64,000 nucleotides of DNA. Origin: Candidatus Delongbacteria bacterium (GTDB lineage Bacteria; CAIWAD01). The notes under the pieces were generated by a model, which saw only the letters and a program-made list of their open reading frames with translations, searched no databases and had not been told where the DNA came from. The position numbers were made by a program, and so were the translations under genes. Shown here piece by piece: positions 30,501 to 52,216 of this stretch. The DNA is taken from positions 173,429 through 237,428 of the forward strand of contig JACKCN010000003.1 of the NCBI GenBank assembly GCA_020634015.1, written 5' to 3'. The stretch's first letter is position 1. The number at the start of each line of letters is the position of its first letter.

Positions 30501-30717
30501 CTTCGTGCTGCGGGCCGTGATCCAGATGGAACCCGTGCGCGTCGAGGATGTGGTGCGCGCGACGATGCTTGGGCTGTCCCAGGTCGAGAATGCGTTGCGT
30601 TACGGGCTGGCGCGCGGGTACTTCCTGCGGGAAGGCGAGCGCTACCGGGTGTCCTGGGCCTGGTTCCGGGCGATCACCCGATTCCTCCAGCGACGTCACC
30701 TGCTGGCCAGTCATTGA
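27553..30717 (+). CDS. large MscK-like membrane protein with C-terminal cytoplasmic P-loop NTPase domain
   Basis: From the N-terminus: signal peptide; ~400 aa of periplasmic Arg/Glu/Gln-rich coiled coil; ~8-10 TM helices (aa ~420-640); then a cytoplasmic domain with Walker A 'VVGERGGGKSAV' and Walker B-like 'ALLIDNAHLL'. A stand-alone MscS gene follows 22 nt downstream. Confidence 0.7.
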   Translation: MIQQLLRHGLWLSCLVWVTSAFGQSPADASAPAESLAHSGPADVVVSPADSSAMRVFVDTTDVQILHATSQRIRDLLGDTLQAEVIPADLFDLPLDDDAAIRVEVERLGAVLGEQGPVPGGRPATHARDGETHSQQGDTSDSLQAGADSLLLAARLGLDRARLDFYSLPKARRDSLVQKQTQRWRETAGARQAAELDQAEKRQRDALAERQRSIEEAAHARTEAERLINEEQARLLGIQAEQASVSADMLRARQALALGGELSLSYHRRIRELQDAGQIADSADGLYDELRQHLRTSRDQLARAISMVAAPSVVPTAGEDPLGSLMSGVDRTAIDRIRLEIDATSVQLRLRERRLRLDQAGQLYDDVRALNADRLKLLGFLSSERRGRIIHFGADGLDQALAEVRQVSLVLSYHLMVSRNWITTLGSSSSTLGWSAVTFGMVLLKWIFTLGLFLWWRKRGDELLQQWRERIREEDRRQRAVLPSRLIIVLDSLRQIRGPLDWLLLVILLVWALPTETAAQLEVRLLATVLFWAFGGALAVDVINTIASHQEQTRPLGALSPHGTLRLRSLRLVGRTVVVFGLILVLSIQLVGRGTIYNWVFSICWFAAIPVALVILRWWRVVILERIDANRKKRPLERWVLQNRSGWKSFPAVAAGGVYLFTRGALRILRNRVSRFNLTRRTLAWLFRRGMDRLADEKSGLQFAELPASVFSIMGPEHQSANDVSGEGDAQVQRVLERIRRTGGGVFAVVGERGGGKSAVLHRVQELHPDTLLLDCPVTGPEGLRQAFASRLALDANSTLETCAAALNQPERDPALLIDNAHLLIQPMMGGLTQFDHIVDVARHNSTQCAWFFAMDEVIWRFLVRARGSRPLFDDVIMLGSWREEDISNLLVTRSREAGIEPDFEHMLEPLPTDADEYDREEALARASAGYYRLLWDYSSGNPGVALHMWRRSLGVGEDGRVFVKLFQAPDTRELEQLPDPAVFVLRAVIQMEPVRVEDVVRATMLGLSQVENALRYGLARGYFLREGERYRVSWAWFRAITRFLQRRHLLASH

Positions 30718-30739
30718 AGCTCCGGGAGGAGACCCCCTC

Positions 30740-31639
30740 ATGAACCGTCGTTGGCCCACACGCATCGGTATCACACTGCTGATCGCCCTGCCGCTGGTTG
30801 CCACCGCCCAGACGCAGGATGCACCGGATCTGGGGCAGCTGGCGAACTTCATCCGCTGGGGCGGCGTGACCCTGTCCATTCTGGTGCTGATGGGAGCAGC
30901 CATCCTGCGCCGCATCGTGGGCGACCTGGCCGAGCGGCTCAGCCGCAGCTTCACCAACCGGCGTCCCACGATCCAGAAAGTGGAGTCGGCCACCAGTTTC
31001 CTGATCTACATCGTGGCGGCCGCGCTCTGTGTGAGTCTGAGCATCAGGCTGGACAAGACGGCCATGACCGTGATCGGAGGCGCGCTGGCCTTTGCCGTGG
31101 GCTTCGCGATGCGCGATCTGGTGGCGGCCTTCATCGCGGGCATCACCATCATGTTCGACCGGCCCTTCCAGGTGGGTGACCGCATTTCCTATGCCGGCGA
31201 GTATGGCGATGTGGTCAAGATCGGCCTGCGCAGCGTGCAGATGAATACGCTGGATCACAACATCGTGACCATTCCCAACAACAAGATCCTGACCGATGTC
31301 ACGGCCAGCGGCAACTATGGCGCGCTGGAGATGCAGGTGCCCATGAACTTCTGGATCGGCATCGGCCAGGACAACGAGCGCGCCTGCGAGATCATCCGCG
31401 AGGCCTGTCTCACCAGTTCCTATGTGCATCTGGACAAGGATGTGCCCGTGATGGCGCGCCAGGTCATCCTGGACAGTTATGTGGCCCTGCAGCTGACGGC
31501 GCGGCCCTATGTCTTCGACTGCCGCTACGAGAAGGCTTTCGAGACCGATGTGCAGTTCCGCGTGATGAAGGCTTTCGCCGAGCAGGGCATTCAGCCTCCG
31601 GCGATCCTGCACCGCACGCTGGGCCAGACCCGGACCTGA
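30740..31639 (+). CDS. mscS: small-conductance mechanosensitive channel MscS
   Basis: Three TM helices and the conserved pore/beta-domain 'ITIMFDRPFQVGDRISYAGEYGDVVKIGLRSVQMNTLDHNIVTIPN'. GGGAGGA RBS. The start is the in-frame ATG inside track ORF 30548..31639. Confidence 0.85.
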   Translation: MNRRWPTRIGITLLIALPLVATAQTQDAPDLGQLANFIRWGGVTLSILVLMGAAILRRIVGDLAERLSRSFTNRRPTIQKVESATSFLIYIVAAALCVSLSIRLDKTAMTVIGGALAFAVGFAMRDLVAAFIAGITIMFDRPFQVGDRISYAGEYGDVVKIGLRSVQMNTLDHNIVTIPNNKILTDVTASGNYGALEMQVPMNFWIGIGQDNERACEIIREACLTSSYVHLDKDVPVMARQVILDSYVALQLTARPYVFDCRYEKAFETDVQFRVMKAFAEQGIQPPAILHRTLGQTRT

Positions 31640-34070: not shown

Positions 34071-35861
34071 ATGCCTGTCTTCCTGCGCACCCTGCTGGCC
34101 CTCCTGCTTCTGGCGGGAAGTGCACCAGCCCAGTTCCTCAGTGACCATCTGGCCCATCCCGAGCGCAACATCTCCTATGTGGACAGTTGCGCGCGTTTCT
34201 GGATGCCCACCTGGGACCCGGTCCAGGGCGGCTTCTACACCAACATCGATCGTACGGGACAGGTGATCAGTGCCTGGGGGCGCAACAAGAACCTGCTGAC
34301 CCAGACCCGCAACGCCTACGGACTGGTGCGGGCCTTCCAGCTCACGGGTGAACAGAGCTACCTGGATCGCGCTCACGAGGCGCTGGTCTGGATGCTGGCA
34401 CACGCCTGGGACACCGCCAACGGCGGAGGCTGGGTCAGTTCGCTGGGCGAGAACGGCCTGCCCACCTCGCCCAACGACAGCCGCAGCGCCTTTGACGCGC
34501 ACTACGCCTTGCTGGGGCTGGCGGCCTATGTGGAGGCGACGGGAGACCCCGAGATGCTGGCGGCCCTGCTGGCGGGCATCGAGCACCTGGAAGCGCATTT
34601 CTGGGACGATCGACCCGGACTGGAAGGCTACTGGGATCACACCAACAGCAGCAACGGCAATCCGGGCGGCAAGAGCTTCAACGCCACCGTGGACGCGGTG
34701 ACGACCCATGTGCTGCTGATGGACCTGATGACCGGCGAGCCCCAGTACCGCCAGCGCCTGCAGACCCTTGCCGGGCAGATGGTGTCACATCTGGTGGCGT
34801 CGATGCCCGCGCAGGCCATCGGCTTCGTCGAGGAATACAACCCCGACTGGCAGCCCGACAACGGCGAGACCATGACCATCATGGGCCATGTGCTGAAGAC
34901 CGCCTGGTGTCTGGGCCGCACCTACCGGCTGGATGGCAATCCGCAATGGCTTGATGCGTCCCATACTCTCTTCGATAACGTCTGGGATCTGGGCTACGAC
35001 CATGAATATGGTGGCCCGTACAAGGACTTCAACCGTGTCACGGGCCAGATGCTGATGTGGAGCAATCCGGACACGGCCAAGGCCTGGTGGCAGATGGAGC
35101 AGGCCGTGGTGGCCGGACTGATGCTGAATGGCCTGTCCGAGGACGAACGCCAGCTGCAGATGGCCGACGAGACCCTGGTGTTCTTCATGGACCATTTCGT
35201 CGACCCCGTCTACGGCGAGATCTACGAGAACCGCACCATCCGGGGCAATGAGACATGGGGCCTGAACAAGGGCGGCGGCGGCAAGGCGGGTTATCATTCC
35301 ATCGAGACGGGCTACTACGCCTACCTCTACGGCAAGCTGCTGCTGCACGGCGACCCGGCCACGCTGCGCTACCGCTTCGTGTCGGCGGAACTGGAGCGCA
35401 ACATCCGGCTGACACCGATCGCCATCGAAGAGGGAGAGCTGCAGATCGCCCAGATCCTGCACGAAGGCGAGCCGTGGACGGACTTCGATCCGCTGGAACG
35501 CACCCTGCACATTCCCGCGGGCAATGGGGGCGAGTTCGAGGTCGTCTTCCAGCGCGCGGGAACCGGACTGCCGGCCCCCGACGGCCGCGGACTTCCCGGC
35601 GCGATCACGCTCTCGGCGGGCCAGCCCAATCCCTTCAACCCGAGCACGCGCCTGAGTTTCACCCTGGCCCATGCAGGCCAGGCTCGCCTGTGCGTCTACA
35701 ACCTGGCGGGCCAGCGGGTGGCAACCCTGCTCGAGGGCCCCACCGCCGCGGGATCCCACGAGCTGCGCTTCGACGCGGGCCATCTGCCCTCGGGACTCTA
35801 CTTCGTCAGTCTGGAAGCCCTGGGCCAGTGCCGCACGCGCAAGCTCAGCCTGGTGCGCTGA
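34071..35861 (+). CDS. secreted N-acylglucosamine 2-epimerase (AGE) superfamily / six-hairpin glycosidase-like protein with T9SS C-terminal sorting domain
   Basis: Signal peptide followed by (alpha/alpha)6-like repeats with Trp-rich motifs. The final ~80 aa, 'GQPNPFNPSTRLSFTLAHAGQARLCVYNLAGQRVATLLEG...LPSGLYFVSLEALGQCRTRKLSLVR', match the T9SS type-A CTD pattern. Confidence 0.65.
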   Translation: MPVFLRTLLALLLLAGSAPAQFLSDHLAHPERNISYVDSCARFWMPTWDPVQGGFYTNIDRTGQVISAWGRNKNLLTQTRNAYGLVRAFQLTGEQSYLDRAHEALVWMLAHAWDTANGGGWVSSLGENGLPTSPNDSRSAFDAHYALLGLAAYVEATGDPEMLAALLAGIEHLEAHFWDDRPGLEGYWDHTNSSNGNPGGKSFNATVDAVTTHVLLMDLMTGEPQYRQRLQTLAGQMVSHLVASMPAQAIGFVEEYNPDWQPDNGETMTIMGHVLKTAWCLGRTYRLDGNPQWLDASHTLFDNVWDLGYDHEYGGPYKDFNRVTGQMLMWSNPDTAKAWWQMEQAVVAGLMLNGLSEDERQLQMADETLVFFMDHFVDPVYGEIYENRTIRGNETWGLNKGGGGKAGYHSIETGYYAYLYGKLLLHGDPATLRYRFVSAELERNIRLTPIAIEEGELQIAQILHEGEPWTDFDPLERTLHIPAGNGGEFEVVFQRAGTGLPAPDGRGLPGAITLSAGQPNPFNPSTRLSFTLAHAGQARLCVYNLAGQRVATLLEGPTAAGSHELRFDAGHLPSGLYFVSLEALGQCRTRKLSLVR

Positions 35862-36040
35862 GCGGGGCCATCGCGCCTGCCCGGATCCTTGTTCGCAGTG
35901 TTCAATTCTGGGCGAGCATCCGCGAACTCACCATCGACATGTTGACGAATCCTTCACGGACGTGACGGGATTCTCGACCCGGGCCGCTTCGGGCGGGCGG
36001 CCCGGATTTTGCTTTGGCGAGGTGTTTTCCCCCATCATCC

Positions 36041-38059
36041 ATGAGGACATCCATGCGCACACTGCTTGCCCCATCGCTGGTCACCCTGCTGCTTGCCGGA
36101 GCGGGACGGACCGCGGATCTGCCCATGTCGACCGATTCTGCCATGCACCAGCCGAGACCGAACCAGACACTCAATGGCGATGCGGACCAGCGTCCCGCCA
36201 ACGACAGCCCGCGCGACAACCGCACTCTGTGCGACAACGCGGTGGTGCTGTCCTGCAACGAGGTGTTCAATGGCTCGTCGGCCCTGTCCCAGAACGGCGA
36301 CACCTGGTCCAACTACTGTTTCAGCGGCGACACGGGCCCCGAGGTCATCCACGTCCTCGAGCACGGTGGCGGCCCGCTGACCCTGACATTGAACAGCGGC
36401 GACTCCAGCCAGCTGGACCTGATCCTGCTGGGCGGCTGTGATGAGGCCGATTGTCTGGCCATGCCCTGGCTGGTGGGCAGCAGCGAGAGCATTTCCGGCA
36501 GTTACCCTGCGGGCACGTATCACGTGGTCGTTGACGCCTATGGCTGGGATGGCCAGCCCTTCACCTACACCCTGGAAACCAGCTGCCTGGGCAATGTGGA
36601 CCTCTGCGCCAACGCCATTCCCCTGCTCTGCGGCAGCACGGTGGTGGGCTCCAGCGACGATTCGCAGAACGGCAATGCCTGGAGCAGCTACTGTTTCAGC
36701 GGCGACAGCGGCCCCGAAGTGATCTACTCGCTGGAGCACCCGGGCGGACCGCTGAATCTGCAGCTCAGTTCCACCGACAGCGAACAGCTGGACCTGATTC
36801 TGCTGGGCAGCTGCGACAGCCAGGACTGCCTGGCCATGCCCTGGCTGGTGGGCAGCGACGAGACCATTTCCGGCGACTATCCCGCGGGCACGTATCACGT
36901 GGTCGTGGATGCCTACGGCTGGAATGGGCAGCCCTTCACCTTCGAGCTGAGCGCCATCTGCCCGGGCGAGGCCGACTACTGCGCCAGCGCGATTCCCCTG
37001 GGCTGCGATGAGCTGGCTTTCGGCAACTCGGAGCAATCGCAGAACGGCAATCTCTGGGGCGAGTACTGCTTCAGCGGCGAGAGCGCTCCGGAAGTGATTT
37101 ACGTGCTCAATCACCCGGGCGGCCTGCTGGACCTCAGTCTCAGTTCCGAGGACAGCAACCAGCTGGACCTGATCCTGCTGGGCAGCTGCGACCCGGCCGA
37201 CTGTCTGGCCATGCCCTGGCTGATCGGCAGCAGCGAGAGCATTTCGGGCGTCTATCCGGCGGGCGAGTACTACGTGGTCGTGGACGCCTTCAACTGGAAC
37301 GGGCTGCCCTTCAGCTTCGCCCTGCGCTCCGGCCCTTGCATCGATGGGCTGGAGTGTCACCACGGCAGCAGTTCGCTGCTGCTGAGCCTGCCCGACATCA
37401 ATGGCATCGCGCTGGAGTATTACCAGCTCTTCGTGCCTGCGACCGCCGGTGTGCTGGGCCAGGTGACCCTCAACCTGAACACCAGTGCATTTCCGGATCA
37501 CGCGGGCGTGCTGAGCCTGAGCGTGCTGCACGCCGACGGTCTGGGGCAACCCACCCTGCTGCAGGGGCAACTGGACGTGGACACCGATCTGCTGCTTGAC
37601 GGCTACAACGATTTTGACATGAGCGGTCTCGGGTACGCCGTGACGCCCGGCCAGGATTTCAGCATCGGGCTGAGCTTCACCGGAGATGGCCCCGCCGACC
37701 GGATCGGCTTTTATGCCGGCGAACCCGGTGGCTACGACGGATTCAGTTCGTTCTACGATGGCGTGAGCTACGATTCCTGGTGGGCCAATGGCGGTGAGCT
37801 GTACGACGAGCTGAATCTGTGCATGCTCGTGTTCACCGCGCCCTGTCCGCCCAGGCCCATGTCGGTGGAGCCCAGTGGCAGCGACATCATGCTCAGCTGG
37901 ACGCCCGACAGTGGCCAGATCCGCATCGAAGCCTCCCTGGATGCCTATGCGGGCTTCCTGCCCCTGGCCACCGTGGACGCCAGCCTGGGCAGCTGGACCG
38001 ACGCCAACGCTTTGGGAGCGCCTCATCGTTTCTACCGGATCGTGCATATCTGCAACTGA
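36041..38059 (+). CDS. secreted protein with three tandem pre-peptidase C-terminal (PPC) domains
   Basis: Signal peptide, then three ~122-aa repeats fitting the PPC pattern (D.D.Y.F....G.L...L......DLDL.L.......S......I......G.YY..V..Y.G..Y.L). Other in-frame ATGs lie at 36014 and 36053. Confidence 0.65.
   Translation: MRTSMRTLLAPSLVTLLLAGAGRTADLPMSTDSAMHQPRPNQTLNGDADQRPANDSPRDNRTLCDNAVVLSCNEVFNGSSALSQNGDTWSNYCFSGDTGPEVIHVLEHGGGPLTLTLNSGDSSQLDLILLGGCDEADCLAMPWLVGSSESISGSYPAGTYHVVVDAYGWDGQPFTYTLETSCLGNVDLCANAIPLLCGSTVVGSSDDSQNGNAWSSYCFSGDSGPEVIYSLEHPGGPLNLQLSSTDSEQLDLILLGSCDSQDCLAMPWLVGSDETISGDYPAGTYHVVVDAYGWNGQPFTFELSAICPGEADYCASAIPLGCDELAFGNSEQSQNGNLWGEYCFSGESAPEVIYVLNHPGGLLDLSLSSEDSNQLDLILLGSCDPADCLAMPWLIGSSESISGVYPAGEYYVVVDAFNWNGLPFSFALRSGPCIDGLECHHGSSSLLLSLPDINGIALEYYQLFVPATAGVLGQVTLNLNTSAFPDHAGVLSLSVLHADGLGQPTLLQGQLDVDTDLLLDGYNDFDMSGLGYAVTPGQDFSIGLSFTGDGPADRIGFYAGEPGGYDGFSSFYDGVSYDSWWANGGELYDELNLCMLVFTAPCPPRPMSVEPSGSDIMLSWTPDSGQIRIEASLDAYAGFLPLATVDASLGSWTDANALGAPHRFYRIVHICN
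36230..37327 (+). repeat. three tandem ~366-bp intragenic repeats (PPC-domain units)
   Basis: The units at 36230-36595, 36596-36961 and 36962-37327 encode near-identical motifs (SQNG..WS.YCFSGD.GPEVI, QLDLILLGSCD..DCLAMPWLVGS, YPAGTYHVVVDAYGWNGQPFT). Confidence 0.7.
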
Positions 38060-38228
38060 TCGCTCATGACACAGGATTCTGATGAAAGGGCACCCCGCGG
38101 GGTGCCCTTCTGTCTTTCACGGATCGCGCACTCCGGAATTTCGTTGCACCCGGCCTGACCGGGGTGTATCATGGTGCAGCTTCCGCCGCAACAGGAAGCA
38201 GGTACACGATACCAGTGCGGAGGTGAGC

Positions 38229-40049
38229 ATGCTCCCTGTCGATTTTCTGAAGAACGTGATCCGCAACGCATGTCGAGACGCGGCTGCGCCTTGCGTTCGC
38301 ACGGCCCGGCATGTCCTGGCGATTCTCCTGCTGCTGTCGATCCTTCCTGCACATGCCGCCACGCGACAGGCACATCGGATGGGCACCGGTTCGGGCTATC
38401 TGGACAATCAGGATGCCGTGGAGATCGGGCGTGAGCAGCAACTGGCGGATTCGCTGGGCGACTGGTTCCATGGAGGATGTTCGTGGCGAAAGGTGCAGAA
38501 GCATTCCCGCGGCGAGCCGATGGACTGGACGCGCACGGATGCATGGGTCGACAGTGTGCGCGCGCATGGCAGGAGCATTCTGCTGGGACTGTATGGCACA
38601 CCCTCCTGGGCGCGACCGGTTGAGTTTCAGGTGCGGGATCCGGAACAGGACAATGATCCGTCCCGATACGCCGCTGCTCCCTCCCGCTCACATCTGCAGG
38701 ACTGGGCACACTTCTGCGCACGGGCTGCGGCCCGCTATTCGGCGCGAGGCGTGCATCACTACGAGATCTGGAATGAGCCCAATGCCCAGGGCTTCTTCAC
38801 CACCAATGATTCGTCCGCGCACTATCCCGAATTGCTGCGGATCGCCGCGGACTCGATTCGCAGCGTGGATCCAGACGCCTTCATCGTGACGGGCGGAATG
38901 CAACCCATCCCCTGGAGTCGCATCGATTCGACCATGACCCTGTTGGGGGATTCCATTTACGTTCGCACCTCGTTCAAGGATTCCAGTCTGAGCTCACGGG
39001 ACTGGTTGCTGCGTCTGTACGACTGGAGCCGGGATCCCGTGCTGAATCCTGAAGGCCACGATATCCGCGAGTCCTTCGATGCGGTGGCCTACCACCCCTA
39101 CGCCTTCTTCGACTGGCGCAGTGGACCCGCCCACTGGCATGAGTATGGGCCACTGGCCGACTATCCAGTGACGGCAGATGGTTTCGGGCCTCATTCCAGA
39201 CAGTCCCTGTTTCTGTATACGAAAAACCTCCACAACATCATGCGGGCCAATCAGGACGGTGCCAAGCAGATCTGGGGCAGTGAATTCGGTCTGCCGACCG
39301 GTGCGCTGAAGTACCGGAACATTCCGGAAAACTGGCCCGACCCGGCGCTTTACGACTCGACCTTCGGTGCCACAATCTGGTTCTCCAATCCAGCCATGGA
39401 AACCTTGCAGGCCGCCTGGGTGAATGACTACATGTCACAGTGGCTGGCCTGGGATTTCACGGGTCCTTTGATCTGGTTCAGCATCCGGGACCGGGTCCCG
39501 GGAAAAGTCTGGAACAAACCCTGGATGCGCTATTCCGGGGGGTACGACTGGTACGGCTTCGCGCGCAATCTGGACTGGTCACTCAAACCGGCGTACACCG
39601 AGCTGCGCAACTGGGCCACGGGGCGGGCAAAGTATCACATCGGAGAAGGCCCGGAGTTCGATCATCAGCGCTGGTCAACCCCGCTGGCCACGCTCATTCG
39701 GGCCAGCGCCGCCCACCAGGACACGGTGCGGATCTGGTTTCATGAAAGAGATTCAGCCTGCGACACGGTGGACTTCAGCCAGCTTGATTTCAGTACGCTG
39801 GATGCGCGGTCGCCGTTCTGCTGTCTCGAGTTGAGGGGAGCGGGGCCGGAGCGCAAGGATGGGGGCAACGATGGCCAGGATTGTGTCCGCTTGCGGGTCC
39901 GGGGAAATCTGGATCTGGAGGGGCGCTTCGATCTGGTGCTGTCCGATCTGTGTGTCGAACAGGATGGCCCCGGGCGACTGTCGGCGTTCATTGCACCGCG
40001 CACGGTCGTGATCGACCGCTGCCGTTTCGTACCGCTCTCCGAGCCGTGA
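38229..40049 (+). CDS. secreted glycoside hydrolase, clan GH-A (GH5/GH39-like) with C-terminal accessory domain
   Basis: Signal peptide, then 'GVHHYEIWNEPN' (the NEP catalytic acid/base motif of clan GH-A) and a later 'WGSEFG' nucleophile-like region. GGAGGTGAG RBS. The start is the in-frame ATG in track ORF 38082..40049. Confidence 0.65.
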   Translation: MLPVDFLKNVIRNACRDAAAPCVRTARHVLAILLLLSILPAHAATRQAHRMGTGSGYLDNQDAVEIGREQQLADSLGDWFHGGCSWRKVQKHSRGEPMDWTRTDAWVDSVRAHGRSILLGLYGTPSWARPVEFQVRDPEQDNDPSRYAAAPSRSHLQDWAHFCARAAARYSARGVHHYEIWNEPNAQGFFTTNDSSAHYPELLRIAADSIRSVDPDAFIVTGGMQPIPWSRIDSTMTLLGDSIYVRTSFKDSSLSSRDWLLRLYDWSRDPVLNPEGHDIRESFDAVAYHPYAFFDWRSGPAHWHEYGPLADYPVTADGFGPHSRQSLFLYTKNLHNIMRANQDGAKQIWGSEFGLPTGALKYRNIPENWPDPALYDSTFGATIWFSNPAMETLQAAWVNDYMSQWLAWDFTGPLIWFSIRDRVPGKVWNKPWMRYSGGYDWYGFARNLDWSLKPAYTELRNWATGRAKYHIGEGPEFDHQRWSTPLATLIRASAAHQDTVRIWFHERDSACDTVDFSQLDFSTLDARSPFCCLELRGAGPERKDGGNDGQDCVRLRVRGNLDLEGRFDLVLSDLCVEQDGPGRLSAFIAPRTVVIDRCRFVPLSEP

Positions 40050-40231
40050 TCCGCAGCATGCAGAACGAACGGAACCTGCTCCTTGCCGCCATGAAGCGAA
40101 CTGTCGTGGGTGGCGCTTGACCTGCCCGGAAGGCACGATGCAGAATCCTGCCTGAACCGCTTGCCGGCTCCGGCGCGGCAAGCCGCAGCGCTCACCGGAT
40201 GGCGATCACCGCGTTGCCGACTCCCACGGGA

Positions 40232-41164
40232 TCAGAGCTGCAGGAGGCGCGGCAATCCACTGCTGGCCAGGGCATTGCGACCCCATGTCAGACTCACTCC
40301 GGGCACGCTCTGGTCCTGGCGCGTATTCCGGACCAGCACGAAAATCGACAGCTCCAGGCGGGATGCGGGAGACCAGTGACCCAGCAGGGCTCCCATCGGG
40401 CCACTCTGGAAGGCATGCTGCAGCTCACTGGCCAGATGATGATGGCGCACGACGCCCGCGCCGACTTCCAATCGCCAACCTGTGGCAGGCATCCAGTCGC
40501 CGTGAGCCAACAGGCTTGCACGGTGGAATCCGGCTCCACTCTCGCAATGCGCCGCCAGAATTCCGGCCCGGGAGCCTGCACCTTTCAGCGCAATCCAGTC
40601 CAGCCGTTGTGTGAACAGGCCGCCCCAGTGTCTGTGCGTGGGATACTCAAGATCCAGCAGGGCGTTGCCACTGAGTCCGTGGTAGCCATTCTGCAGTGAT
40701 TGGCCGCCCAGGTCGCCTCGAGCCGCGAGACCCAGCCCCATGGTCCAGGCCAGAGATTGGCTGTGCCACAGGGAGTTCTCGAGCTGAACGAATCCCAGAT
40801 CCGTGCGGGTGCCCGAGAGTCGGTCGGTGAGGCAGTGCAGCGCCAGCCCCAGTTCAAGGGAGCGCTGCGGCGGCCCCCAGGCATGCCAGGCCGCCAGGGA
40901 AAAGGTCAGATGGTCATCCTGGGCCCGCCCGTGCCCTTCGCGCAGAAAGCGCAGCAGATCCACCGTGTCCTCGCGAAAGGTCAGCCCGGTCTGAGCCCCC
41001 GCGCCGTGGCAGGGCCGTGCCGGGCCCAGCACGAGACACGCGGCAAGCAGGAGACAGCCTGCCGCCTGAAGAAAGCGCCAGAACCGTGCGGGAGCCTCAA
41101 TGGAACAGGCGTGGGGCATCGGGGGTCCGGAACTCAGTCGCTGATCCTCAGGTCCTCGCTGCAC
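40232..41164 (-). CDS. secreted/outer-membrane hypothetical protein
   Basis: A signal-like N-terminus with His/Trp-rich segments. No secure family assignment, and the start is uncertain. Confidence 0.35.
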   Translation of the reverse strand: MQRGPEDQRLSSGPPMPHACSIEAPARFWRFLQAAGCLLLAACLVLGPARPCHGAGAQTGLTFREDTVDLLRFLREGHGRAQDDHLTFSLAAWHAWGPPQRSLELGLALHCLTDRLSGTRTDLGFVQLENSLWHSQSLAWTMGLGLAARGDLGGQSLQNGYHGLSGNALLDLEYPTHRHWGGLFTQRLDWIALKGAGSRAGILAAHCESGAGFHRASLLAHGDWMPATGWRLEVGAGVVRHHHLASELQHAFQSGPMGALLGHWSPASRLELSIFVLVRNTRQDQSVPGVSLTWGRNALASSGLPRLLQL

Positions 41165-41673
41165 ACCAGGCTCACACGGGGGCCGAAACTGTCCAGGCCG
41201 GCCAGGGTGGCGTTGTGGTGAGCCACGATCTGACCCGCGCTGAGCACGCCGTTGTCCATGGTGGTGTGGGCGTCGGAGACCAGCACCACCGGGTAGCCAT
41301 GGGCCAGTGCCGCGCGCACGGTGGAATCCACACAGTATTCACTTTGCAGGCCGCAGATGATCAGCCGCTGGATGCCAGCCGCGTCCAGACCCTTCTTGAG
41401 GTCGGTCCCGTGGAACGAATCGGGGGTGGTCTTGCGCACGCGCGCGTCCCCGGGCAATGGCTGCAGGCGGCTGTCCAGCTGCCAACCCGGACTGCCCCAG
41501 CGCAGCAGCTCGTGATCCTCTTCGTGCTGGATCCAGAACACGGGCACACCAGCGGCGCGTGCCCTGACCGTCAGAGTGTTGATGCGCGATGTCAGCACTT
41601 CGGCGTCATGCACGGAATACTCTCCCGTGCAGAGTGCTTGCTGGACATCGATCACAAGGAGTGCGGTTTTCAT
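41134..41673 (-). CDS. isochorismatase-family cysteine hydrolase
   Basis: 'KTALLVIDVQQAL' (catalytic Asp), a Lys, and 'ICGLQSEYCVDSTVRAA' (catalytic Cys). GGGGAGG RBS. Start reassigned to MKTALL. Confidence 0.8.
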   Translation of the reverse strand: MKTALLVIDVQQALCTGEYSVHDAEVLTSRINTLTVRARAAGVPVFWIQHEEDHELLRWGSPGWQLDSRLQPLPGDARVRKTTPDSFHGTDLKKGLDAAGIQRLIICGLQSEYCVDSTVRAALAHGYPVVLVSDAHTTMDNGVLSAGQIVAHHNATLAGLDSFGPRVSLVCSEDLRISD

Positions 41674-41727
41674 CGGGCCTCCCCAGATTTCATTGTGTTC
41701 CAGTCTGTTGTCCATTCCGGGCCCGGG

Positions 41728-42726
41728 TCATGCCGACCTGGCGCGCCGGATCAACTCCGCCTCGCGCTCCGGGTCGAGGGCCAGCTGGATCCGGGCACCT
41801 TGCTGGATGGAGGCACGCACACGTGCGATGGTATCTGCCAGCGGTGTGATCCGCAGCCCCAGGCTCCGTGCTTTGGCGTTGGAGACATCCATCAGGCCGC
41901 TGTATGGCTGGCCATCGGCTCTGTACAGTGGCAGCAGCTGAAAGTTCAGGCCCGCTTCATCGAGCATGCCCCATGGCACCCAGACCGGATCCGGCACGCC
42001 CAGCATGGACATGAATTCCGTCCAGCGCACGCGTTCGCCCGCCAGGTTGAAGGCACCCGGTAGGTTGTGTTCCAGAACCGTGCCGACGAACCGGGCCACA
42101 TCCTCCACATCGATCAACTGCAGCCAGTCCTGCCCGGCACCGGGCGCGAGCATCGGGCCGGGCAGCAGAGCGCGCTGCACCCAGTGACCCAGTCTGGACC
42201 AAGGGTCCGCGGGCCCCGCGACCACCTGGGGACGCAGGATCGTGGCCCGCGCGCCGAATGTCTCACGCACGATGCGCTCGCAGGTGGCCTTGAGACGCCC
42301 ATAGTTGCCACCGGCCAGATCGGTCTCGGTTTCCGGGGCCTCGGGGGTCAGGGGTGTGCTCTCGTCCACCGGTCCGCTGGACAGGGGGCCATAGGCCGCC
42401 GCCGAACTGATGAACAGGTAGCGCTCGACCCTCCCGGCCAGGGCCCGGGAGGACGCTCGCACCTGGATCGCGGTGTAGCCCGACAGATCCACGCAGACAT
42501 CCCAGGTGCGTGTGCCGAGGGCCGCGATGCCGGCTGGCCCCGCATCGCGATCGCCGTGCAGGCGTTCGACTTCGGCGGGCAGGTCGCCGTCCCGTGCGCC
42601 TCGAGTCAGGATGGTGAGCGTGCAAGCCCTGGCCAGCAGCGCTTGCACCACGGCCGACCCGATGAACCCGGTGCCGCCCAGGATCAGGATCCGTTCGCCG
42701 CAGAGGCCTGTGGTGCTCGCCATCAA
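41728..42726 (-). CDS. NAD-dependent epimerase/dehydratase family (extended SDR) protein
   Basis: 'ILILGGTGFIGSAVVQALLA' Rossmann motif and a YxxxK-like 'YGRLK'. Confidence 0.8.
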   Translation of the reverse strand: MMASTTGLCGERILILGGTGFIGSAVVQALLARACTLTILTRGARDGDLPAEVERLHGDRDAGPAGIAALGTRTWDVCVDLSGYTAIQVRASSRALAGRVERYLFISSAAAYGPLSSGPVDESTPLTPEAPETETDLAGGNYGRLKATCERIVRETFGARATILRPQVVAGPADPWSRLGHWVQRALLPGPMLAPGAGQDWLQLIDVEDVARFVGTVLEHNLPGAFNLAGERVRWTEFMSMLGVPDPVWVPWGMLDEAGLNFQLLPLYRADGQPYSGLMDVSNAKARSLGLRITPLADTIARVRASIQQGARIQLALDPEREAELIRRARSA

Positions 42727-42793
42727 GATCTCCGTTCCTGCATCAGTTCCATGCCGCCTTCACATCCACCTGATGCGAAGGTTCGACCGCCGC

Positions 42794-44626
42794 TCACTTG
42801 CACAGCAGGACTTTCTGCTGCAGCAGCTCCGAGTCACCCTGGAGGCGCACGATGTATACGCCGGAGGCCAGAGTGGAGCCGTCCAGCCGAAAACTGTGCT
42901 CGCCCGTGCCCATCAGCCCCTCGTGGAGCCTGGCGACTTCCTGGCCGAGCAGATTGAAGATGCCCAGACTGGCGTGTTGTGCGTGGCTCACGACCACGCC
43001 CAGCACCGTGTCGGGATTGAACGGGTTGGGGAAGGCTGGCTGCAGGATCAGAGAACCAGGGAGTCCCGCCTGCGGAGCAAGCGAGGCGCTCGGATCGATC
43101 ACCAGAAACTGGCCCATCATGCCGGCGTCCTCGTGGATCAGCATGTGGCAGTGATACATGTATGGTACCGTGCTGCTGGCATGGTCAAGAAACTGGGTGA
43201 TGAACCGCACGGTCTGCATGGGCGGCACCAGAATCACATCCTTGCGCCCGCTCAGTGCGGGCAGGGGAGGCGCACCGTTCAGATCCAACACGTAGAACTG
43301 GACATCGTGGATATGGAATGGATGGGCGATCGGCGACTGGTTGGTGATCGACCAGATTTCGGTGGCCCCCAGCATGATCGTCTCGTTGATCATGCCCATG
43401 TCGAACTCGCTGCCATTGATCAGGAAGTGACCATTGAGCGCGTTGGGACCCGGAGTCATGGGAGTCAGCAGGAACTGCCGGAGCGTGTCGGCCTGGCTTT
43501 CTGGCAGGGGAGTCTGCGGCACCAGTTCCCCGGGAATGGTCAGCACCGGATTCTCGCTCTGCGCGCCGATGTTGAAGCGCATGACCTGAAAGTCGGTGCC
43601 GTTCATCGGATTCGGGTTGTATCCGGTCAGTACCTGCTGGGGCATCATTCCCGGCTGAAGGGCGCCGTATACGCCATTCGGCAGTTCCGAGGCATAGCTC
43701 ATCAGAGCGAGGGAACCCGTGTAGTTGGCGAAGTTCACCAGAATCTCCGCACGCTCGCCCGGGGAAAGCTGCAACCGGGTCAATGCCAGTGGCGAGCCCA
43801 GCAGGCCGCCATCGGAGGCGATCATCTGGAAGTTGCTGTTGTCTTCCAGCCCAAGGTTGAAGGTGCGCATCGAGGAGCCGTTCAGCAGGCGCAGGCGGAC
43901 CACCTGGCCCGGCACGGCAAGTTCCGCGTTGACGGTGGCATTCACCATCAGCACCGAGTCGGCATTCGAAGGCACGATGATCTGCCCGGTCTCATCGACG
44001 GTCTTGGTCTGGATCGCCAGAGGGAAGTCATCAACGCCGTAGGTGCGCGGCAGGTCCAGCGCGGCCTCTTCGGCGTCGCGCACGATCACGAAACCGGCGA
44101 TGCCCCGCGAGGCGTGCAGATTTGTGTTCTCGTGCAGGTGCGGGTGATACCAATAGGTTCCGGCCTTGTCCAGCACCGTGAACTGCGGGTTCCAGGTCGC
44201 CCCGGGCACGATCACGGTATGGGGACCGCCGTCATTCTCGGGTGACACATGCATGCCGTGCCAGTGGATGGTAGTGGTCGTGCCCAGTTGATTCTCAAGG
44301 AACAGGCTCACGTCCTCGCCCTGTTCCATGATCAGAGTCGGTCCCAGGACTGGCCCGTTCACCCCCATGGTGGCCGAATCGGTGCCCGGACGGAACTGCC
44401 AGCTGCCGGTCTGCAGGGTCAGCTGATAGGTTGGGCCTTCAAGGGTCGGCGGCAGCAGGATGGTGGCCCCGGCAGGACCTGTCCAGCCCGCCAGGGTCGC
44501 CAGGGCGATCACGCCAAGAATTCGTTGGCGCAGGAACGCGCAGGCAGGTTGAACAGGCAAGGAACAGATATCCACGCAGTCTCCAATCAGGTGATTCAAT
44601 GAGTGTGTGGGGGCGTGCTCAGGCAA
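42794..44626 (-). CDS. multicopper oxidase (CotA/CueO/bilirubin oxidase-like) with T9SS C-terminal sorting domain
   Basis: Four copper-binding His motifs ('IHWHGMHV', 'WYHPHLH', 'HPFHIHD', 'HCHMLIHEDAGMM'). The C-terminal ~80 aa, 'FPNPFNPDTVLGVVV...LGIFNLLGQEVARLHEG...LASGVYIVRLQGDSELLQQKVLLCK', fit the T9SS CTD. Confidence 0.85.
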   Translation of the reverse strand: MPEHAPTHSLNHLIGDCVDICSLPVQPACAFLRQRILGVIALATLAGWTGPAGATILLPPTLEGPTYQLTLQTGSWQFRPGTDSATMGVNGPVLGPTLIMEQGEDVSLFLENQLGTTTTIHWHGMHVSPENDGGPHTVIVPGATWNPQFTVLDKAGTYWYHPHLHENTNLHASRGIAGFVIVRDAEEAALDLPRTYGVDDFPLAIQTKTVDETGQIIVPSNADSVLMVNATVNAELAVPGQVVRLRLLNGSSMRTFNLGLEDNSNFQMIASDGGLLGSPLALTRLQLSPGERAEILVNFANYTGSLALMSYASELPNGVYGALQPGMMPQQVLTGYNPNPMNGTDFQVMRFNIGAQSENPVLTIPGELVPQTPLPESQADTLRQFLLTPMTPGPNALNGHFLINGSEFDMGMINETIMLGATEIWSITNQSPIAHPFHIHDVQFYVLDLNGAPPLPALSGRKDVILVPPMQTVRFITQFLDHASSTVPYMYHCHMLIHEDAGMMGQFLVIDPSASLAPQAGLPGSLILQPAFPNPFNPDTVLGVVVSHAQHASLGIFNLLGQEVARLHEGLMGTGEHSFRLDGSTLASGVYIVRLQGDSELLQQKVLLCK

Positions 44627-45739: not shown

Positions 45740-48661
45740 TCAAATCCGCCCGGCCTTGTCCAACAGCGAGAACAGCTCTTCCACGACATCGGCCACCTGC
45801 TGCAGGTCGTCCAGTTCGGCGGCTATCGCAAAAGTGACTTTCTGACGTAACTCTCGCAGGGTGGCTTCGCTTTTCTTCCAGTTGGGCAGGTCCACGAAGG
45901 CGGCCTTGATTCGCCCGCTGACCGATTCCGCATTGCCGACCCCTTTGTCCAGCAAGGTCCTGTAAACGAAATAGGTCAGGCCATCAAAGCCTTTGGCTGC
46001 CTGCTCCTTCTTGCGGAGTTCGTTGGCTTCCACGGCCTCAAGCAAGGTGGCCAGGGCTTCACTTGTGGAAGTCTGCCGCTCTTCGAAACTCTGCTGGACG
46101 GCCAGGGCTCGTTCCGCCATCGCGATCAGAAACGGATCGTCGCTTTCCTCTTCGGCCGTCTTCTGGATGCTGCGGATCAGGTTGATGACTTTCGTGCCTT
46201 CGCCGCCACGGGTTGACTTGATGAGTTCGATCGTATCCTCGTCGATCCGGATCCGGCCGCTGGGATCCGCGAGTCCATAGGTGCCCACCTGTTCCTGGAT
46301 CAAACTGCCCGTCTTGCGTTGGAACTCCCGGTCCACATAGACTGTCTTTGCAAAAGCCTTGCGCACCACGTGGTACATCGCTGCCAGTGATGTATAGGAA
46401 TCGATGAACGGCCGCAAGAAGGCATCCGGTGAGATGATTTCGTAAAGCATCTCGAGTTCCTTGAACTCCTTGAAGAATACCTTGCGCCGGTCGGCATCAC
46501 GAAAATGCTCGATCAGAGTTTCCACATCCTTGTCATTGAAGTTCTGTTCAATCAGGGCGAGATACGCCGGTGCCGATTGTTCCATCCTGGATTTGAACAA
46601 TTCCTTGAGCAGCTTCAGATCCTTGACGATGGCGTTCACTTCGTCGCTGTCGAAGGCCAGCGCCTTTGACAGCTTGTCAAAGATGCCCACGAAATCCAGC
46701 ACGAAACCGTGTGGCTTCACCATTTCCTGTGCTTCGTTCTCGTACGGGCGGTTCACCCGGGCAATGGCCTGCAGCAGAGTGTGGTCACGCATCGGCTTGT
46801 CCAGATACATCGCGTACAGCACGGGTGCATCGAAGCCCGTCAGCAGTTTCTCGGTGACGATGAGAATCTTCGGCTGCTGGTCCAGCTTGCCAAAGCTCTT
46901 GCGGATCTGGCGTTCACGCTTGCTCTCAAGATGGAACTCCTTCAGCAGGGCCGAATCGTTGTTGTTGTCCGTGTACACCACCTCCGAGTAATCGGGCGGC
47001 AGAAACTGGTCCAGCGCATGTTTGTACATCGCACAGGCTTCGCGGTCCACACCTACCAGAAAGCCTTTGTAACCCAGCGGCTCCACGGTTTCCCGGTAGT
47101 GACTGGCGACGAACTGTGCCACCTGCTGGATACGCTGTGCCCCTTTGAGGAAGTTTTTCAGGGTCACCGCCCGCTCAAGGATCTTGTTCAGTTCCTCAAT
47201 GTCGGCCACGCCTTCGGCTTCGGCGAGGGAGAGAAACTCCTTGTCCAGAGTTTCGTGCGGAACGAGCAGTTCGTTGGGGGCGAGCTGGTAGTACAGCGGC
47301 AGGGTGGTGCCGTCCTCGATACTGTCCGAGATGGAGTACTTGTGCAGGTAGCCCCGGTCATCTTCGCAGCCGAAGGTCTTGAAGGTACCCTTGCCGTAAA
47401 CGGTCCTGTCCACCGGCGTTCCCGTGAAGCCGATGTAGGTCGCATTCGGCAGACCGGCCATCAGGAAGTTGCCCAGATCGCCACCAGTGGTACGGTGGGC
47501 TTCGTCAATAAGCACGTAGATATTGGTGCGCGTGTTGATATCCGCAGGCATGTCGCGGAATTTGTGCACCATGGTCACGATGATACCGCGGTAGTCATCC
47601 CTCAGCAGCTGGTTGAGTCGATCGATGCTGCTGGCGTGCTCCAGATTGCCCATGCCGAGCGCGGCCAGATTCTTCAGCATCTGATCTTCCAGCTCGTTGC
47701 GGTCAATCATCAGCAGCACGGTGGGCTTGTCGGCTTCCGGTGCGCGGAAGAGCTTTTCCGCCGCCTTGATTATGGTGAAAGTCTTGCCGCTTCCCTGGGT
47801 GTGCCAGACGAGGCCCCGCCTGCGTCCGGGATCGAGGGCCCGACCGACAGTCGCTTCCACGGCGCCGGTCTGGTGCTGGCGCAGGATGTATTTGTTCAGC
47901 TCCTCGTCCTTTTCGGCGAAGACGATGTAGTCCTTCAGAAAGGCCAGCACCTGCGGAATGGCACAGAAGCTGCGAACCTTGGCCTCCAGCTTGCCGAGCT
48001 CCGTGTCCTTCCAGTTGAAGATGTTCCGCCGCACCGTATTCCAACTTGCACCGTATGAGAAGCCGATCGCGTCGGTGGCGGTGAACAGTTGTTGCGACAC
48101 GAACAGTTCGGGAGTCTCGCGGTGGTAGCGGCGGATCTGGTCCACCCCCAGGGCAATCGCCTCGTCCTTGCTGGCGTTCTTGCACTCGATCACCAGTACG
48201 GGGATGCCATTGATGAGAAAGACCACATCTTCCCGCGTTCCGTAGCGCCCGTTGTGAAAGGCCCACTCCTCGGTCACTTCGTAGACATTGTTCGTTGGCT
48301 CGTCGTAGTCGATCAGGTTCAGGTCGCGCTCGCGCTTCTCCTGGTGATCGAAGAACTTGCCGTGGTTTCGCAGGTGCTCGACGAATTCACGGTTTCCGTA
48401 AATGTCGGTGTGTAGGCGACGGAACTGTCCGGGCAGAGCACCCGCGGCCTCGGCGTAACACGGGTTGAACTCCCGCACCTTGCTGTCCAGCAGAGCCTCG
48501 AAGTAGAGCGAACGGTTCCGGGCTCGGTCGGCAACCGGCGTGTCGGGATCAAACCCGCGCCGCTGCTCAGCTGCGGCACGGGACACAACAGTCCAGCCGA
48601 TAGCCTCGGCGTAGGCGAGGATCCGGGATTGGACGGTTTTATGTTCTCCGGGTGTGAGCAT
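45740..48661 (-). CDS. hsdR: type I restriction enzyme R subunit (helicase/endonuclease)
   Basis: N-terminal nuclease region and SF2 helicase motifs ('HTQGSGKTFTIIKAAEKL' motif I, 'IYVLIDEAHRTTGG' motif II DEAH). The 973-aa length is typical of HsdR. Confidence 0.92.
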   Translation of the reverse strand: MLTPGEHKTVQSRILAYAEAIGWTVVSRAAAEQRRGFDPDTPVADRARNRSLYFEALLDSKVREFNPCYAEAAGALPGQFRRLHTDIYGNREFVEHLRNHGKFFDHQEKRERDLNLIDYDEPTNNVYEVTEEWAFHNGRYGTREDVVFLINGIPVLVIECKNASKDEAIALGVDQIRRYHRETPELFVSQQLFTATDAIGFSYGASWNTVRRNIFNWKDTELGKLEAKVRSFCAIPQVLAFLKDYIVFAEKDEELNKYILRQHQTGAVEATVGRALDPGRRRGLVWHTQGSGKTFTIIKAAEKLFRAPEADKPTVLLMIDRNELEDQMLKNLAALGMGNLEHASSIDRLNQLLRDDYRGIIVTMVHKFRDMPADINTRTNIYVLIDEAHRTTGGDLGNFLMAGLPNATYIGFTGTPVDRTVYGKGTFKTFGCEDDRGYLHKYSISDSIEDGTTLPLYYQLAPNELLVPHETLDKEFLSLAEAEGVADIEELNKILERAVTLKNFLKGAQRIQQVAQFVASHYRETVEPLGYKGFLVGVDREACAMYKHALDQFLPPDYSEVVYTDNNNDSALLKEFHLESKRERQIRKSFGKLDQQPKILIVTEKLLTGFDAPVLYAMYLDKPMRDHTLLQAIARVNRPYENEAQEMVKPHGFVLDFVGIFDKLSKALAFDSDEVNAIVKDLKLLKELFKSRMEQSAPAYLALIEQNFNDKDVETLIEHFRDADRRKVFFKEFKELEMLYEIISPDAFLRPFIDSYTSLAAMYHVVRKAFAKTVYVDREFQRKTGSLIQEQVGTYGLADPSGRIRIDEDTIELIKSTRGGEGTKVINLIRSIQKTAEEESDDPFLIAMAERALAVQQSFEERQTSTSEALATLLEAVEANELRKKEQAAKGFDGLTYFVYRTLLDKGVGNAESVSGRIKAAFVDLPNWKKSEATLRELRQKVTFAIAAELDDLQQVADVVEELFSLLDKAGRI

Positions 48662-48968
48662 GAGTTACAGATTCTCGCTCGGCGCTGGTGGAAAGCCCGA
48701 GAGTTGGGTCACATGATTCCACGAGCAAATCGGCTTGACTGAGTATTCAGAACTCTCAAAGTCAGCAGGAGGATTTGTGTGCGTCTTCATTCTCTTGGCC
48801 ATCGTTGAATTTGCGTCTCCCGATTGAAGGGGCAGCTGAAAACCGCAGGCTATCCCAACATTGAGTTTGTATGTGTATGCCCAAATGGATCGAGATATTC
48901 GTACGTCTCCTATGGGCATCAACATTCAAAGATTGGCATGATTCAGGTCGTGTCTGCTGATTCAGTGC

Positions 48969-51050: not shown

Positions 51051-52216
51051 AAGGAAATCTCCAATCTGTGAACGCGGGACTTCGCGGTCATCAGTTCGTG
51101 AAGGAGGGTGAGGAAGAGGTCTTGGAACGAGTGTTTGCGACTCTCGTGAAAGGTGATCTTTGATTCGACCGTTTCCAGCGCTTCGCCGATCTCCACCTGT
51201 TGGCCCTTTGGGGGGACAACGATCTTCTCGCCGTGGACAATATTCCGATTCAATGTTGGGTTTGCGGCTCCCGTGTCGAATCGCTTCAGTCGCATAGTCT
51301 TAAGCAAGTAACCGACAAATCGGGGATCGTTCCCTTTGAAATCTTTCACCCAAAGAGTCGTGTCATGAGGCCAATAGTCGGTTGGAATATAGTGGACCGT
51401 TCCGAGGGTGCCCTTACGCCCGATAACGACCCCCGGGCCCTTTACTTTCGGTTCATCGTGATAGCTGCTAACGCCTCCAGATGAGACGACCGGATACTCT
51501 CCGGGTCTTTGGTCCTTTTTCGTGATGTCGAATCCTCTTTGAAGAACAGCGAATGAATCGAAGCGTTTGACCTCCCAGCTTTCGGGGACGGGGCCGATTT
51601 CGGTTTGTTTTTGGGGTTCGTTGCGAAGGCCTTCGGTGAAGAGCTTGTGCATGAGAGCCTTCTTCAGCTCTGTGGTTGTCTGAATGATCCGCTCCTGCGC
51701 TTCGATCGCCTTCTGCACCGTCGACAGGATGTGCGCCATCTTCTTCTGTTCGGCTAGTGGGGGGAGTGAAAGGCGGAATTCCTTCAGCGAAGGCCACGAT
51801 GTCCTGGGATGCTGAACCCCGCTCGTCGTTGATTTTGCGTGGTCGATGAATTCATTGCTGTGGATGACAAACTTCAAGTACTCTGACTCACAGGAAGGCG
51901 TAGCACGAAATGCGAGAATGTCCGTTGAGCATACACCATCAAAATTGGCCCGTGCGCCTTTGCGGAGATACGGACGAAGCTTTCCAAAGAGAATGTCGTC
52001 TACTTTGAAGGCCGTCTTGGCGGACTTCACGTCGCTTTCTTTTCCTCGGCCAACAAACACGGGAAATCCTTGGGCCAGGTGCTCAAGGCCTACATATGGT
52101 GTGTCGCCGCCTTCGATTGGTTTGTATGAATCCTTCACACGATTGCATATGTCACCAAACTTGTGGTTTTCCCATCCAGGAGGCAGTGGATCAAGAAGCA
52201 AGTTGGAATCGCTCAT
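51047..52216 (-). CDS. hsdS: type I restriction-modification specificity subunit
   Basis: Two target-recognition domains separated by the conserved central and C-terminal coiled-coil repeats ('SLPPLAEQKKMAHILSTVQKAIEAQERIIQTTTELKKALMHKLFTEG' and 'LLHELMTAKSRVHRLE'). Start reassigned to MSDSNLLLDP with a GGAG RBS. The upstream part of track ORF ..52348 begins with GTG and is unlikely to be coding. Confidence 0.85.
   Translation of the reverse strand: MSDSNLLLDPLPPGWENHKFGDICNRVKDSYKPIEGGDTPYVGLEHLAQGFPVFVGRGKESDVKSAKTAFKVDDILFGKLRPYLRKGARANFDGVCSTDILAFRATPSCESEYLKFVIHSNEFIDHAKSTTSGVQHPRTSWPSLKEFRLSLPPLAEQKKMAHILSTVQKAIEAQERIIQTTTELKKALMHKLFTEGLRNEPQKQTEIGPVPESWEVKRFDSFAVLQRGFDITKKDQRPGEYPVVSSGGVSSYHDEPKVKGPGVVIGRKGTLGTVHYIPTDYWPHDTTLWVKDFKGNDPRFVGYLLKTMRLKRFDTGAANPTLNRNIVHGEKIVVPPKGQQVEIGEALETVESKITFHESRKHSFQDLFLTLLHELMTAKSRVHRLEISL

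Follow-up and report, generated by a model that had tools for sequence, protein, structure and literature searches.

Escherichia coli CueO, a multicopper oxidase, is a substrate of the twin-arginine translocation (Tat) pathway, and structures of related enzymes include the laccase-like CueO from Ochrobactrum (6evg) and CueO from Hafnia alvei (8r4f). The AGE superfamily comprises, among others, the cellobiose 2-epimerases 5zig and 3wkg, the GlcNAc 2-epimerases 8bry and 2gz6, the glucose 2-epimerase 8h1k, the mannose isomerase 5x32 and YihS; the glutamate of an HxxE motif is general across this superfamily, and all of its characterised members are, to our knowledge, intracellular. Type A cargo of type IX secretion systems (T9SS), such as RgpB from Porphyromonas gingivalis and the Flavobacterium johnsoniae cargo whose C-terminal domains (CTDs) were solved with the SprA translocon (8glk, 8glj), ends in an Ig-like 3+4 sandwich with a functionally required glycine in the motif L-beta3-beta4 (PMC11285876). 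Here we describe two genes from a 64 kb stretch of contig JACKCN010000003.1 (hereafter the window, meaning the whole of the DNA analysed), which belongs to a metagenome-assembled genome (MAG) labelled Candidatus Delongbacteria bacterium. One encodes an AGE-like protein and the other a CueO-like multicopper oxidase (MCO), and both products carry a T9SS CTD. The domains, folds and conserved residues of the two proteins, the architecture that runs through their families and the gene context of their homologues were observed, and on these grounds we consider it likely that both are Sec-exported T9SS cargo enzymes, the MCO acting as a cuprous oxidase outside the outer membrane and the AGE-fold enzyme on extracellular glycans.

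Sorting domains, proposed export route and host

The AGE-like gene (34071-35861, plus strand) encodes a protein of 596 aa, secreted by prediction, with an AGE fold and a T9SS type A CTD (NCBI MCB9473655.1, annotated as 'AGE family epimerase/isomerase'), and the MCO gene (42794-44575, minus strand) encodes a three-domain multicopper oxidase, CueO-like and 593 aa long, with a CTD of the same type (MCB9473661.1, to which the MCO of the window is 100% identical). Both accessions come from one 486,764 bp contig of the Delongbacteria-labelled MAG, so that both proteins are already annotated in NCBI, and both are members of large families of T9SS cargo. The two tagged enzymes of the window are encoded by unrelated, independently placed genes in a GC-rich region (GC 0.61-0.66), and the open reading frames (ORFs) were confirmed by GC3-based ORF filtering and translation. 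The AGE-like gene starts with ATG, with GGAG 6 nt upstream. For the MCO gene we adopted the GTG at 44575 of the NCBI model, which has GGAG 5 nt upstream; the longest possible ORF extends to a TTG start at 44626, and a start at 44533, where the codon is CTG, was rejected in favour of the GTG.

A preliminary description of this DNA, made from its letters alone, had proposed that both proteins end in T9SS CTDs, and profile searches, structural models and matches to solved CTDs all bear this out. The CTD of the AGE-like protein occupies residues 512-596 (35604-35858, plus strand) and that of the MCO residues 509-593 (42797-43051, minus strand). TIGR04183 matched residues 519-592 of the AGE-like protein with 26.3 bits and residues 532-607 of the MCO (longest-ORF numbering) with 35.0 bits, against a cutoff of 23. 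With PF18962 the outcome was divided: the MCO tail scored 30.1 bits, over the cutoff of 27, whereas the AGE-like tail scored 23.1 bits, slightly under it, which counts against the assignment for that protein and leaves the proposed check on both C-termini upheld by TIGR04183 for the pair and by PF18962 for the MCO only. The profile matches lie at the extreme C-termini of both proteins and end at most 4 residues from the stop codon. The tail motif given in the preliminary description is essentially present in both proteins, where PNPFNP is followed by (V/I)(Y/F)NL.GQ.VA.L, SG.Y.V.L and a basic final residue; invariant positions are P519, N520, P521, N523 and G547 in the AGE-like protein and P516, N517, P518, G544 and G572 in the MCO.

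AlphaFold models of the two proteins (mean pLDDT 89.8 for the AGE-like protein and 88.1 for the MCO) both end in a low-confidence linker followed by a seven-strand beta-sandwich, and the two sandwich models match the CTD fold described in PMC11285876. G547 and G544, which are invariant in their respective families, are taken to be at the position of the required glycine of motif L-beta3-beta4 of that study. The linker of the AGE-like protein (residues 498-510; 35562-35600, plus strand) has a pLDDT below 50, and that of the MCO lies at residues 500-506; by analogy with the P. gingivalis work cited in PMC11285876, the AGE-like linker is the likely site of CTD removal.

A profile built from the two tails recovered 166 proteins from the sequence database at E <= 0.001, with PF18962 on record for 119 of the best 120 matches listed (E <= 2e-15). 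In the PDB its top five matches were all T9SS CTDs (the F. johnsoniae cargo 8glk_D and 8glj_D, gingipain CTDs and mirolase), with a best E value of 0.0018 and low sequence identity to the solved domains. As a search for other cargo of the same lineage, the profile returned only short fragments (<=150 aa), none of them labelled Delongbacteria, among the matches listed, a result that supports the identity of the CTDs and is uninformative on lineage. An ad hoc HMM of the two tails found no third CTD copy in any of the six reading frames of the window. The two proteins thus share with characterised type A cargo a domain of 80-85 aa at the extreme C-terminus that is matched by curated HMMs, a seven-strand Ig-like sandwich whose conserved features are a glycine before or at the onset of strand 4 and the C-terminal strand, a flexible linker ahead of the CTD and an N-terminal Sec signal; they differ in their host, an uncultured candidate phylum under the Delongbacteria label, and in that secretion is here predicted from sequence. 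We conclude that each tail is an authentic T9SS sorting domain of type A.

The Sec signals of both proteins were read from sequence and from the modelled N-terminal helices. In the AGE-like protein the signal peptide spans residues 1-20 (34071-34130, plus strand), with a cleavage site, placed by eye, between MPVFLRTLLALLLLAGSAPA and Q21; residues 2-14 form a hydrophobic helix in the model, and in an alignment of 40 AGE-CTD homologues Q21 is conserved to at least 90%. Short signal peptides and no twin-arginine motif are seen in the AGE homologues shown. By a simple pattern (AQ or SQ), a glutamine stands directly after the predicted signal peptide in 67 of 119 AGE-CTD and 69 of 120 MCO-CTD homologues, including proteins from Ignavibacteria, Marinimicrobia and Calditrichia. 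This 'Q-rule' is described in PMC5837995 as Bacteroidetes-specific and not common to the whole Fibrobacteres-Chlorobi-Bacteroidetes (FCB) group.

On the proposed route, the Sec system would move each protein across the inner membrane, and folding would take place in the periplasm, where the oxidase would also acquire its copper. The T9SS translocon would then recognise the C-terminal sandwich and export the protein across the outer membrane, after which the tag would be cut at the flexible linker and the enzyme either released or anchored at the surface. That the proteins are actually secreted and anchored, and on which substrates they act, we infer from the features described here. Two points weigh against this picture or leave it incomplete: the sequence does not distinguish release from surface anchoring, and a search of all plausible ORFs with Pfam and NCBIfam models found no T9SS core gene (SprA/Sov, PorV, PorU, PorZ, GldK/L/M/N) in the window.

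The MAG represents an uncultured bacterium that carries the Candidatus Delongbacteria label; this candidate phylum is an ally of the FCB group. The Delongbacteria phylum was named as RIF26 (PMC5079060), and NCBI lists Delongiibacteriota under 'Bacteria candidate phyla', outside the FCB group. Clusters at >=90% identity around both window proteins carry the labels Delongbacteria, Cloacimonadota and Calditrichota, which indicates that the phylum label is unstable. Further homologues of the window proteins come from Ignavibacteria, Calditrichia, Marinimicrobia and Bacteroidota. The proposal that the DNA derives from a T9SS-bearing group or an allied candidate phylum was accordingly right in kind. 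The AGE-CTD gene also occurs in MAGs labelled Lentisphaeria, Deltaproteobacteria, Syntrophomonadaceae and Acidobacteriota; the divergent phylum labels of such relatives are probably labelling or binning errors.

The lack of T9SS genes in the window, together with the placement of the phylum outside the FCB group and our finding no paper that links Delongbacteria with T9SS, would also fit a genome without a working T9SS, in which the tails are inherited relics and both enzymes are periplasmic, like E. coli CueO. We regard this as very improbable. Among orthologues sharing 46-65% identity the key residues of the CTD do not vary, and the complete Delongbacteria-labelled chromosome OY760505.1 has adjacent genes for CTD proteins, an AGE-CTD protein 55% identical to that of the window being followed by another PF18962 protein. 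The tails themselves argue in the same direction: the MCO tail is 40% identical over 85 aa to the AGE-like tail of the same genome, as against 41% to the tail of its nearest orthologue and a mean of 25% to orthologue tails, a pattern that fits continued selection by one host machinery. A literature search on T9SS across FCB candidate phyla yielded nothing usable.

The CueO-like oxidase

The MCO matches the Pfam families Cu-oxidase_3, Cu-oxidase and Cu-oxidase_2, and its three cupredoxin domains (residues 44-493; 43097-44446, minus strand) hold a complete set of copper ligands (H104, H106, H144, H146, H418, H421, H423, H475, C476, H477, H481 and M486), each of which is kept in at least 97% of 120 homologues. 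All four copper motifs (HxHG, HxH, HxxHxH and HCHxxxHxxxxM) are present, with methionine as the axial ligand. The best sequence match in the PDB was 6evg (E = 1.4e-85), and Foldseek comparison with CueO structures gave TM-scores of 0.86-0.92, the range for the score on the target being 0.88-0.92. The CueO equivalog model NF008205 scored 338 bits, under its cutoff of 525; the MCO of the window is CueO-like and not a CueO equivalog. It shares with the CueO enzymes of E. coli, Ochrobactrum and H. alvei, at about 31-35% identity, the three cupredoxin domains, all T1/T2/T3 ligands and the axial methionine; homologues of the MCO sit among copper or other metal efflux genes. The region that corresponds to the Met-rich insert of CueO holds just 7 methionines per 100 residues.

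Targeting sets the MCO family apart from E. coli CueO. The homologues considered are the best 120 of 7997 significant matches; they are 53-65% identical to the window protein, and their named sources include Marinimicrobia, Calditrichaeota, Chlorobi/Ignavibacteria, Melioribacteraceae, Flavobacteriaceae, Saprospiraceae and Draconibacterium. All 120 have short signal peptides, and none contains the twin-arginine motif RRx[FLIVMA][LIVMAF] in its first 35 residues. PF18962 is on record for 119 of them, and the exception, P0002, has a CTD visible in its sequence. Thus, in place of the Tat signal of enterobacterial CueO, the family appears to have adopted a Sec signal together with a T9SS CTD, the latter implying export past the outer membrane. 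The preliminary description had called a T9SS-exported laccase-like oxidase unusual, a view that does not survive this comparison: all of the best 120 homologues are of the same length (about 560-600 aa) and carry the same tail, which makes the T9SS-tagged oxidase the norm of the family and not an oddity. In the literature we found multicopper oxidases and T9SS mentioned together once, without a connection being drawn, and a search on T9SS and laccase gave nothing relevant, judging by titles and the openings of abstracts.

The genes that surround the homologues bear on function. At the locus of the closest relative (65% identical), genes for CusB-HMBD and CusA lie upstream and one for an HMBD P-type ATPase directly downstream, and the Calditrichaeota locus encodes a pair of HMBD-containing RND systems of the Cus/Czc type. 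A Draconibacterium-like homologue, on a 6.1 Mb contig, is accompanied by genes for an HMBD ATPase, for HMA proteins, for an RND pump and for a CDF transporter, as well as for Fur. The Melioribacteraceae locus encodes a P-type ATPase, and the Marinimicrobia locus two CDF transporters, MntP and HupE/UreJ. Metal transport genes therefore adjoin the MCO gene in all five homologue loci, and in four of the five they are of copper type (HMBD/HMA, Cus-like RND, P-type ATPase). This context favours a cuprous oxidase, secreted or at the surface, over a laccase, and it renders the 'laccase-like' function given in the preliminary description doubtful. We regard the MCO as a complete CueO-type cuprous oxidase whose job would most likely be the oxidation of Cu(I) beyond the outer membrane for copper tolerance.

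In the window itself the context is different, and this tells against a role in copper tolerance. No copper gene adjoins the MCO gene, whose neighbours encode an NAD-epimerase, an isochorismatase and an ASCH protein and recur in none of the homologue loci, so that the copper role rests on homologues just 57-65% identical. The same absence would suit an enzyme that works outside the cell as a genuine laccase, a polyphenol oxidase or an Mn(II) oxidase and is engaged in the degradation or transformation of organic matter instead of copper tolerance, a function for which export past the outer membrane would be apt if the substrates were bulky; moreover, the top PDB match, 6evg, has been described as the laccase-like CueO of a bacterium that degrades lignin, and some MCO homologues are called 'bilirubin oxidase' by JGI. 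We nevertheless think such an activity unlikely, given the methionine axial ligand, the overall resemblance to CueO and the position of all five homologue loci within metal efflux or homeostasis clusters, none being found in a cluster for the degradation of aromatic compounds or polysaccharides.

In one Calditrichaeota genome (L003/L004, 9929-11311) and one Melioribacteraceae genome (L091, 9911-11437), a second T9SS-CTD gene lies directly after the MCO-CTD gene. Its product, of 460-508 aa, has no other recognised domain except FlgD_ig and may be a partner of the oxidase; the gene is absent from the window.

An AGE-fold family predicted to be secreted

The AGE-like protein matches PF07221 (GlcNAc_2-epim) with 101 bits (gathering threshold 23.4) over model positions 1-344 of 347. 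Its (alpha/alpha)6 barrel spans residues 25-425 (34143-35345, plus strand), with invariant R80, H213, H273, K276, E343 and H409, and is followed by a small beta-sandwich at residues 430-495 (35358-35555, plus strand), whose strands are seen in the model and which accompanies the barrel in every family member. The top Foldseek matches were cellobiose, glucose and GlcNAc 2-epimerases, mannose isomerase and YihS (E about 1e-21; TM-score on the target 0.8-0.9), with GH76 trailing at about 1e-10. In alignments with 5zig and 8bry, catalytic residues of these enzymes fall at the positions of R80, H213, H273 and H409. The HxxE motif of the two enzymes corresponds to H273-V-L-K276 in the AGE-like protein, and the lysine is shared by 40 of 40 homologues and kept by 73 of 75 distant cluster representatives. 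The protein is 15-24% identical to the superfamily members listed at the outset, with which it shares the (alpha/alpha)6 barrel, the full length of PF07221, the arginine and three histidines; it differs from them in its signal peptide, the extra beta-sandwich, the T9SS CTD (carbohydrate-binding modules, CBMs, in relatives) and the invariant lysine in place of the HxxE glutamate.

The best 120 homologues are 48-71% identical to the AGE-like protein, apart from one partial sequence at 98% identity, are nearly all 590-600 aa long and for the most part have PF18962 on record. Among GTDB species representatives a relative was found at 208 loci, with 55% identity for the best AGE-family match; the best 80 of these loci are all from MAGs, mostly of Ignavibacteria, with others from Calditrichia, Neomarinimicrobiota and Bacteroidota and the one Delongbacteria-labelled chromosome mentioned above. 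An exhaustive HMMER search over 1.84 billion cluster representatives returned 130 at E <= 1e-30. Many of the matches from this search stop at residue 494-495 of the AGE-like protein, whatever comes next, indicating that barrel and sandwich form a conserved unit and that the C-terminal part is variable. In nine long members, Pfam identified T9SS CTDs, CBM4_9, CBM60, malectin, BACON, PKD, fn3 and GH115_C, and in the CBM-fused members the six matching positions are again occupied by R, H, H, K, E, H. These observations suggest that the AGE-like protein belongs to an extracellular carbohydrate-active enzyme family without a characterised member, acting most likely on extracellular glycans or the oligosaccharides derived from them.

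Because the residues of AGE-type proton transfer are kept, the AGE-like protein is probably an epimerase or isomerase that acts on reducing ends. There is a competing possibility, which we take seriously without thinking it probable, that with the same barrel the protein works as a hydrolase of glycosides or a lyase, or binds glycans without catalysis. It is favoured by the invariant lysine, which stands where characterised AGE and CE enzymes have the glutamate of HxxE, by the presence in distant members of CBMs typical of polysaccharide-degrading enzymes, by weak secondary Pfam matches to GH76, GH127 and C5-epimerase models, and by NCBIfam equivalog scores for AGE and CE that are far under cutoff (NF052547, 45 bits against 600; NF041848, 35 bits against 800; both at the level of GlcNAc or cellobiose 2-epimerase). 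Such a change of activity is harder to reconcile with the invariance of the arginine and histidine residues used for proton transfer in AGE and CE enzymes, and with the Foldseek ranking, in which epimerases and isomerases of the AGE superfamily stand about 11 orders of magnitude ahead of GH76.

Gene neighbourhoods, compared at four individual loci and at 80 GTDB loci whose genes were clustered by all-against-all BLASTP, gave no support for a particular substrate: even the most frequent neighbour family is present at no more than 10 of the 80 loci, and the neighbours of the AGE-like gene in the window (the PPC-repeat protein, the GH-like protein, a radical SAM protein and others) stand beside no AGE homologue. 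With no conserved neighbour in 80 genomes, the substrate is a guess, and this weighs against the proposed action on glycans. A sugar transferase (Bac_transf) gene lies near the AGE gene in three loci, two of which share gene order (L001, L009), and was not used.

Two side observations concern the genes downstream. At 36014-38059 (plus strand), 153 bp downstream of the AGE-like gene and co-directional with it, lies a gene for a secreted 681-aa protein with three tandem modules of about 125 aa of the PPC (pre-peptidase C-terminal) type, visible in the DNA as a 375 bp period with 2.4 copies and a 78% match; the C-terminal region of this protein has no family match and no T9SS CTD, and the gene is not found beside AGE homologues elsewhere. 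A further 23 bp downstream, the gene at 38082-40049 (plus strand) encodes a 655-aa protein with weak matches to glycoside hydrolase families GH5 and GH39 and with the motif 'EIWNEPN', of a kind typical for acid/base sites in clan GH-A. This protein, whose true start is uncertain, contains an internal hydrophobic stretch that resembles a signal and has no CTD.

Other features of the window and implications

A block of lower GC content (0.51-0.59, compared with 0.61-0.66 for most of the window) extends from about 45740 to 56143, next to the oxidase gene. It contains a type I restriction-modification system (hsdR, 45740-48661; hsdS, 51047-52348; hsdM, 54524-56143), and among the hsd genes lie a 693-aa ORF without a known family (48969-51050), a Fic-like_C gene (52467-53024) and a gene encoding a fusion of cytidine deaminase and HATPase_c_4 (53021-54511). 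The block looks like a horizontally acquired defence island. On its far side, a metal-homeostasis cluster (57331-63647) encodes a ZIP transporter, a ZnuA/ZnuB/ZnuC-type ABC transporter, an MntR/DtxR-type regulator, a Nitro_FeMo-Co domain protein and a DUF134 protein; we can only speculate that, if the restriction-modification island was inserted, this cluster once lay within about 2-3 kb of the oxidase gene.

At the other end of the window, a succinate:quinone oxidoreductase operon (3836-7189, minus strand) encodes an iron-sulfur subunit of 281 aa, a flavoprotein of 637 aa and a single membrane anchor of 223 aa (PF01127), in agreement with an earlier remark on a single-anchor enzyme. Two long ORFs of high GC3 overlap on opposite strands at 27553-30717 (plus strand, 1054 aa) and 27625-30993 (minus strand, 1122 aa); the plus-strand ORF, the only one of the two scanned, has an AAA_22 Pfam match.

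In itself, the finding adds little beyond two further T9SS cargo proteins of type A, a kind of cargo that one would expect in this lineage. It does indicate that candidate-phylum MAGs labelled Delongbacteria carry typical T9SS cargo, in a phylum for which we found no paper describing a T9SS. Going further, we put forward only tentatively, and with less than even confidence, the combined proposal that the AGE-fold protein represents an undescribed extracellular carbohydrate-active family, defined by barrel plus sandwich and HxxK, which FCB-type bacteria export through T9SS and which is elsewhere joined to CBM4_9, CBM60 or malectin, and that the FCB-type CueO has been rerouted from Tat and the periplasm to Sec, T9SS and the cell surface. 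Systematic targeting of CueO-type oxidases of FCB-type bacteria to Sec and T9SS and not to Tat would raise the questions of where copper is inserted into these enzymes and where Cu(I) is detoxified. For the AGE-like protein, an extracellular role, if true, would make it the first member of the AGE superfamily with a demonstrated function outside the cell, with the reducing ends of released oligosaccharides being epimerised or isomerised there, or with new chemistry on the same barrel. With its altered catalytic signature, its CBM fusions and no characterised member, this widespread family of AGE-fold proteins, predicted to be secreted, is a reasonable target for enzyme discovery.

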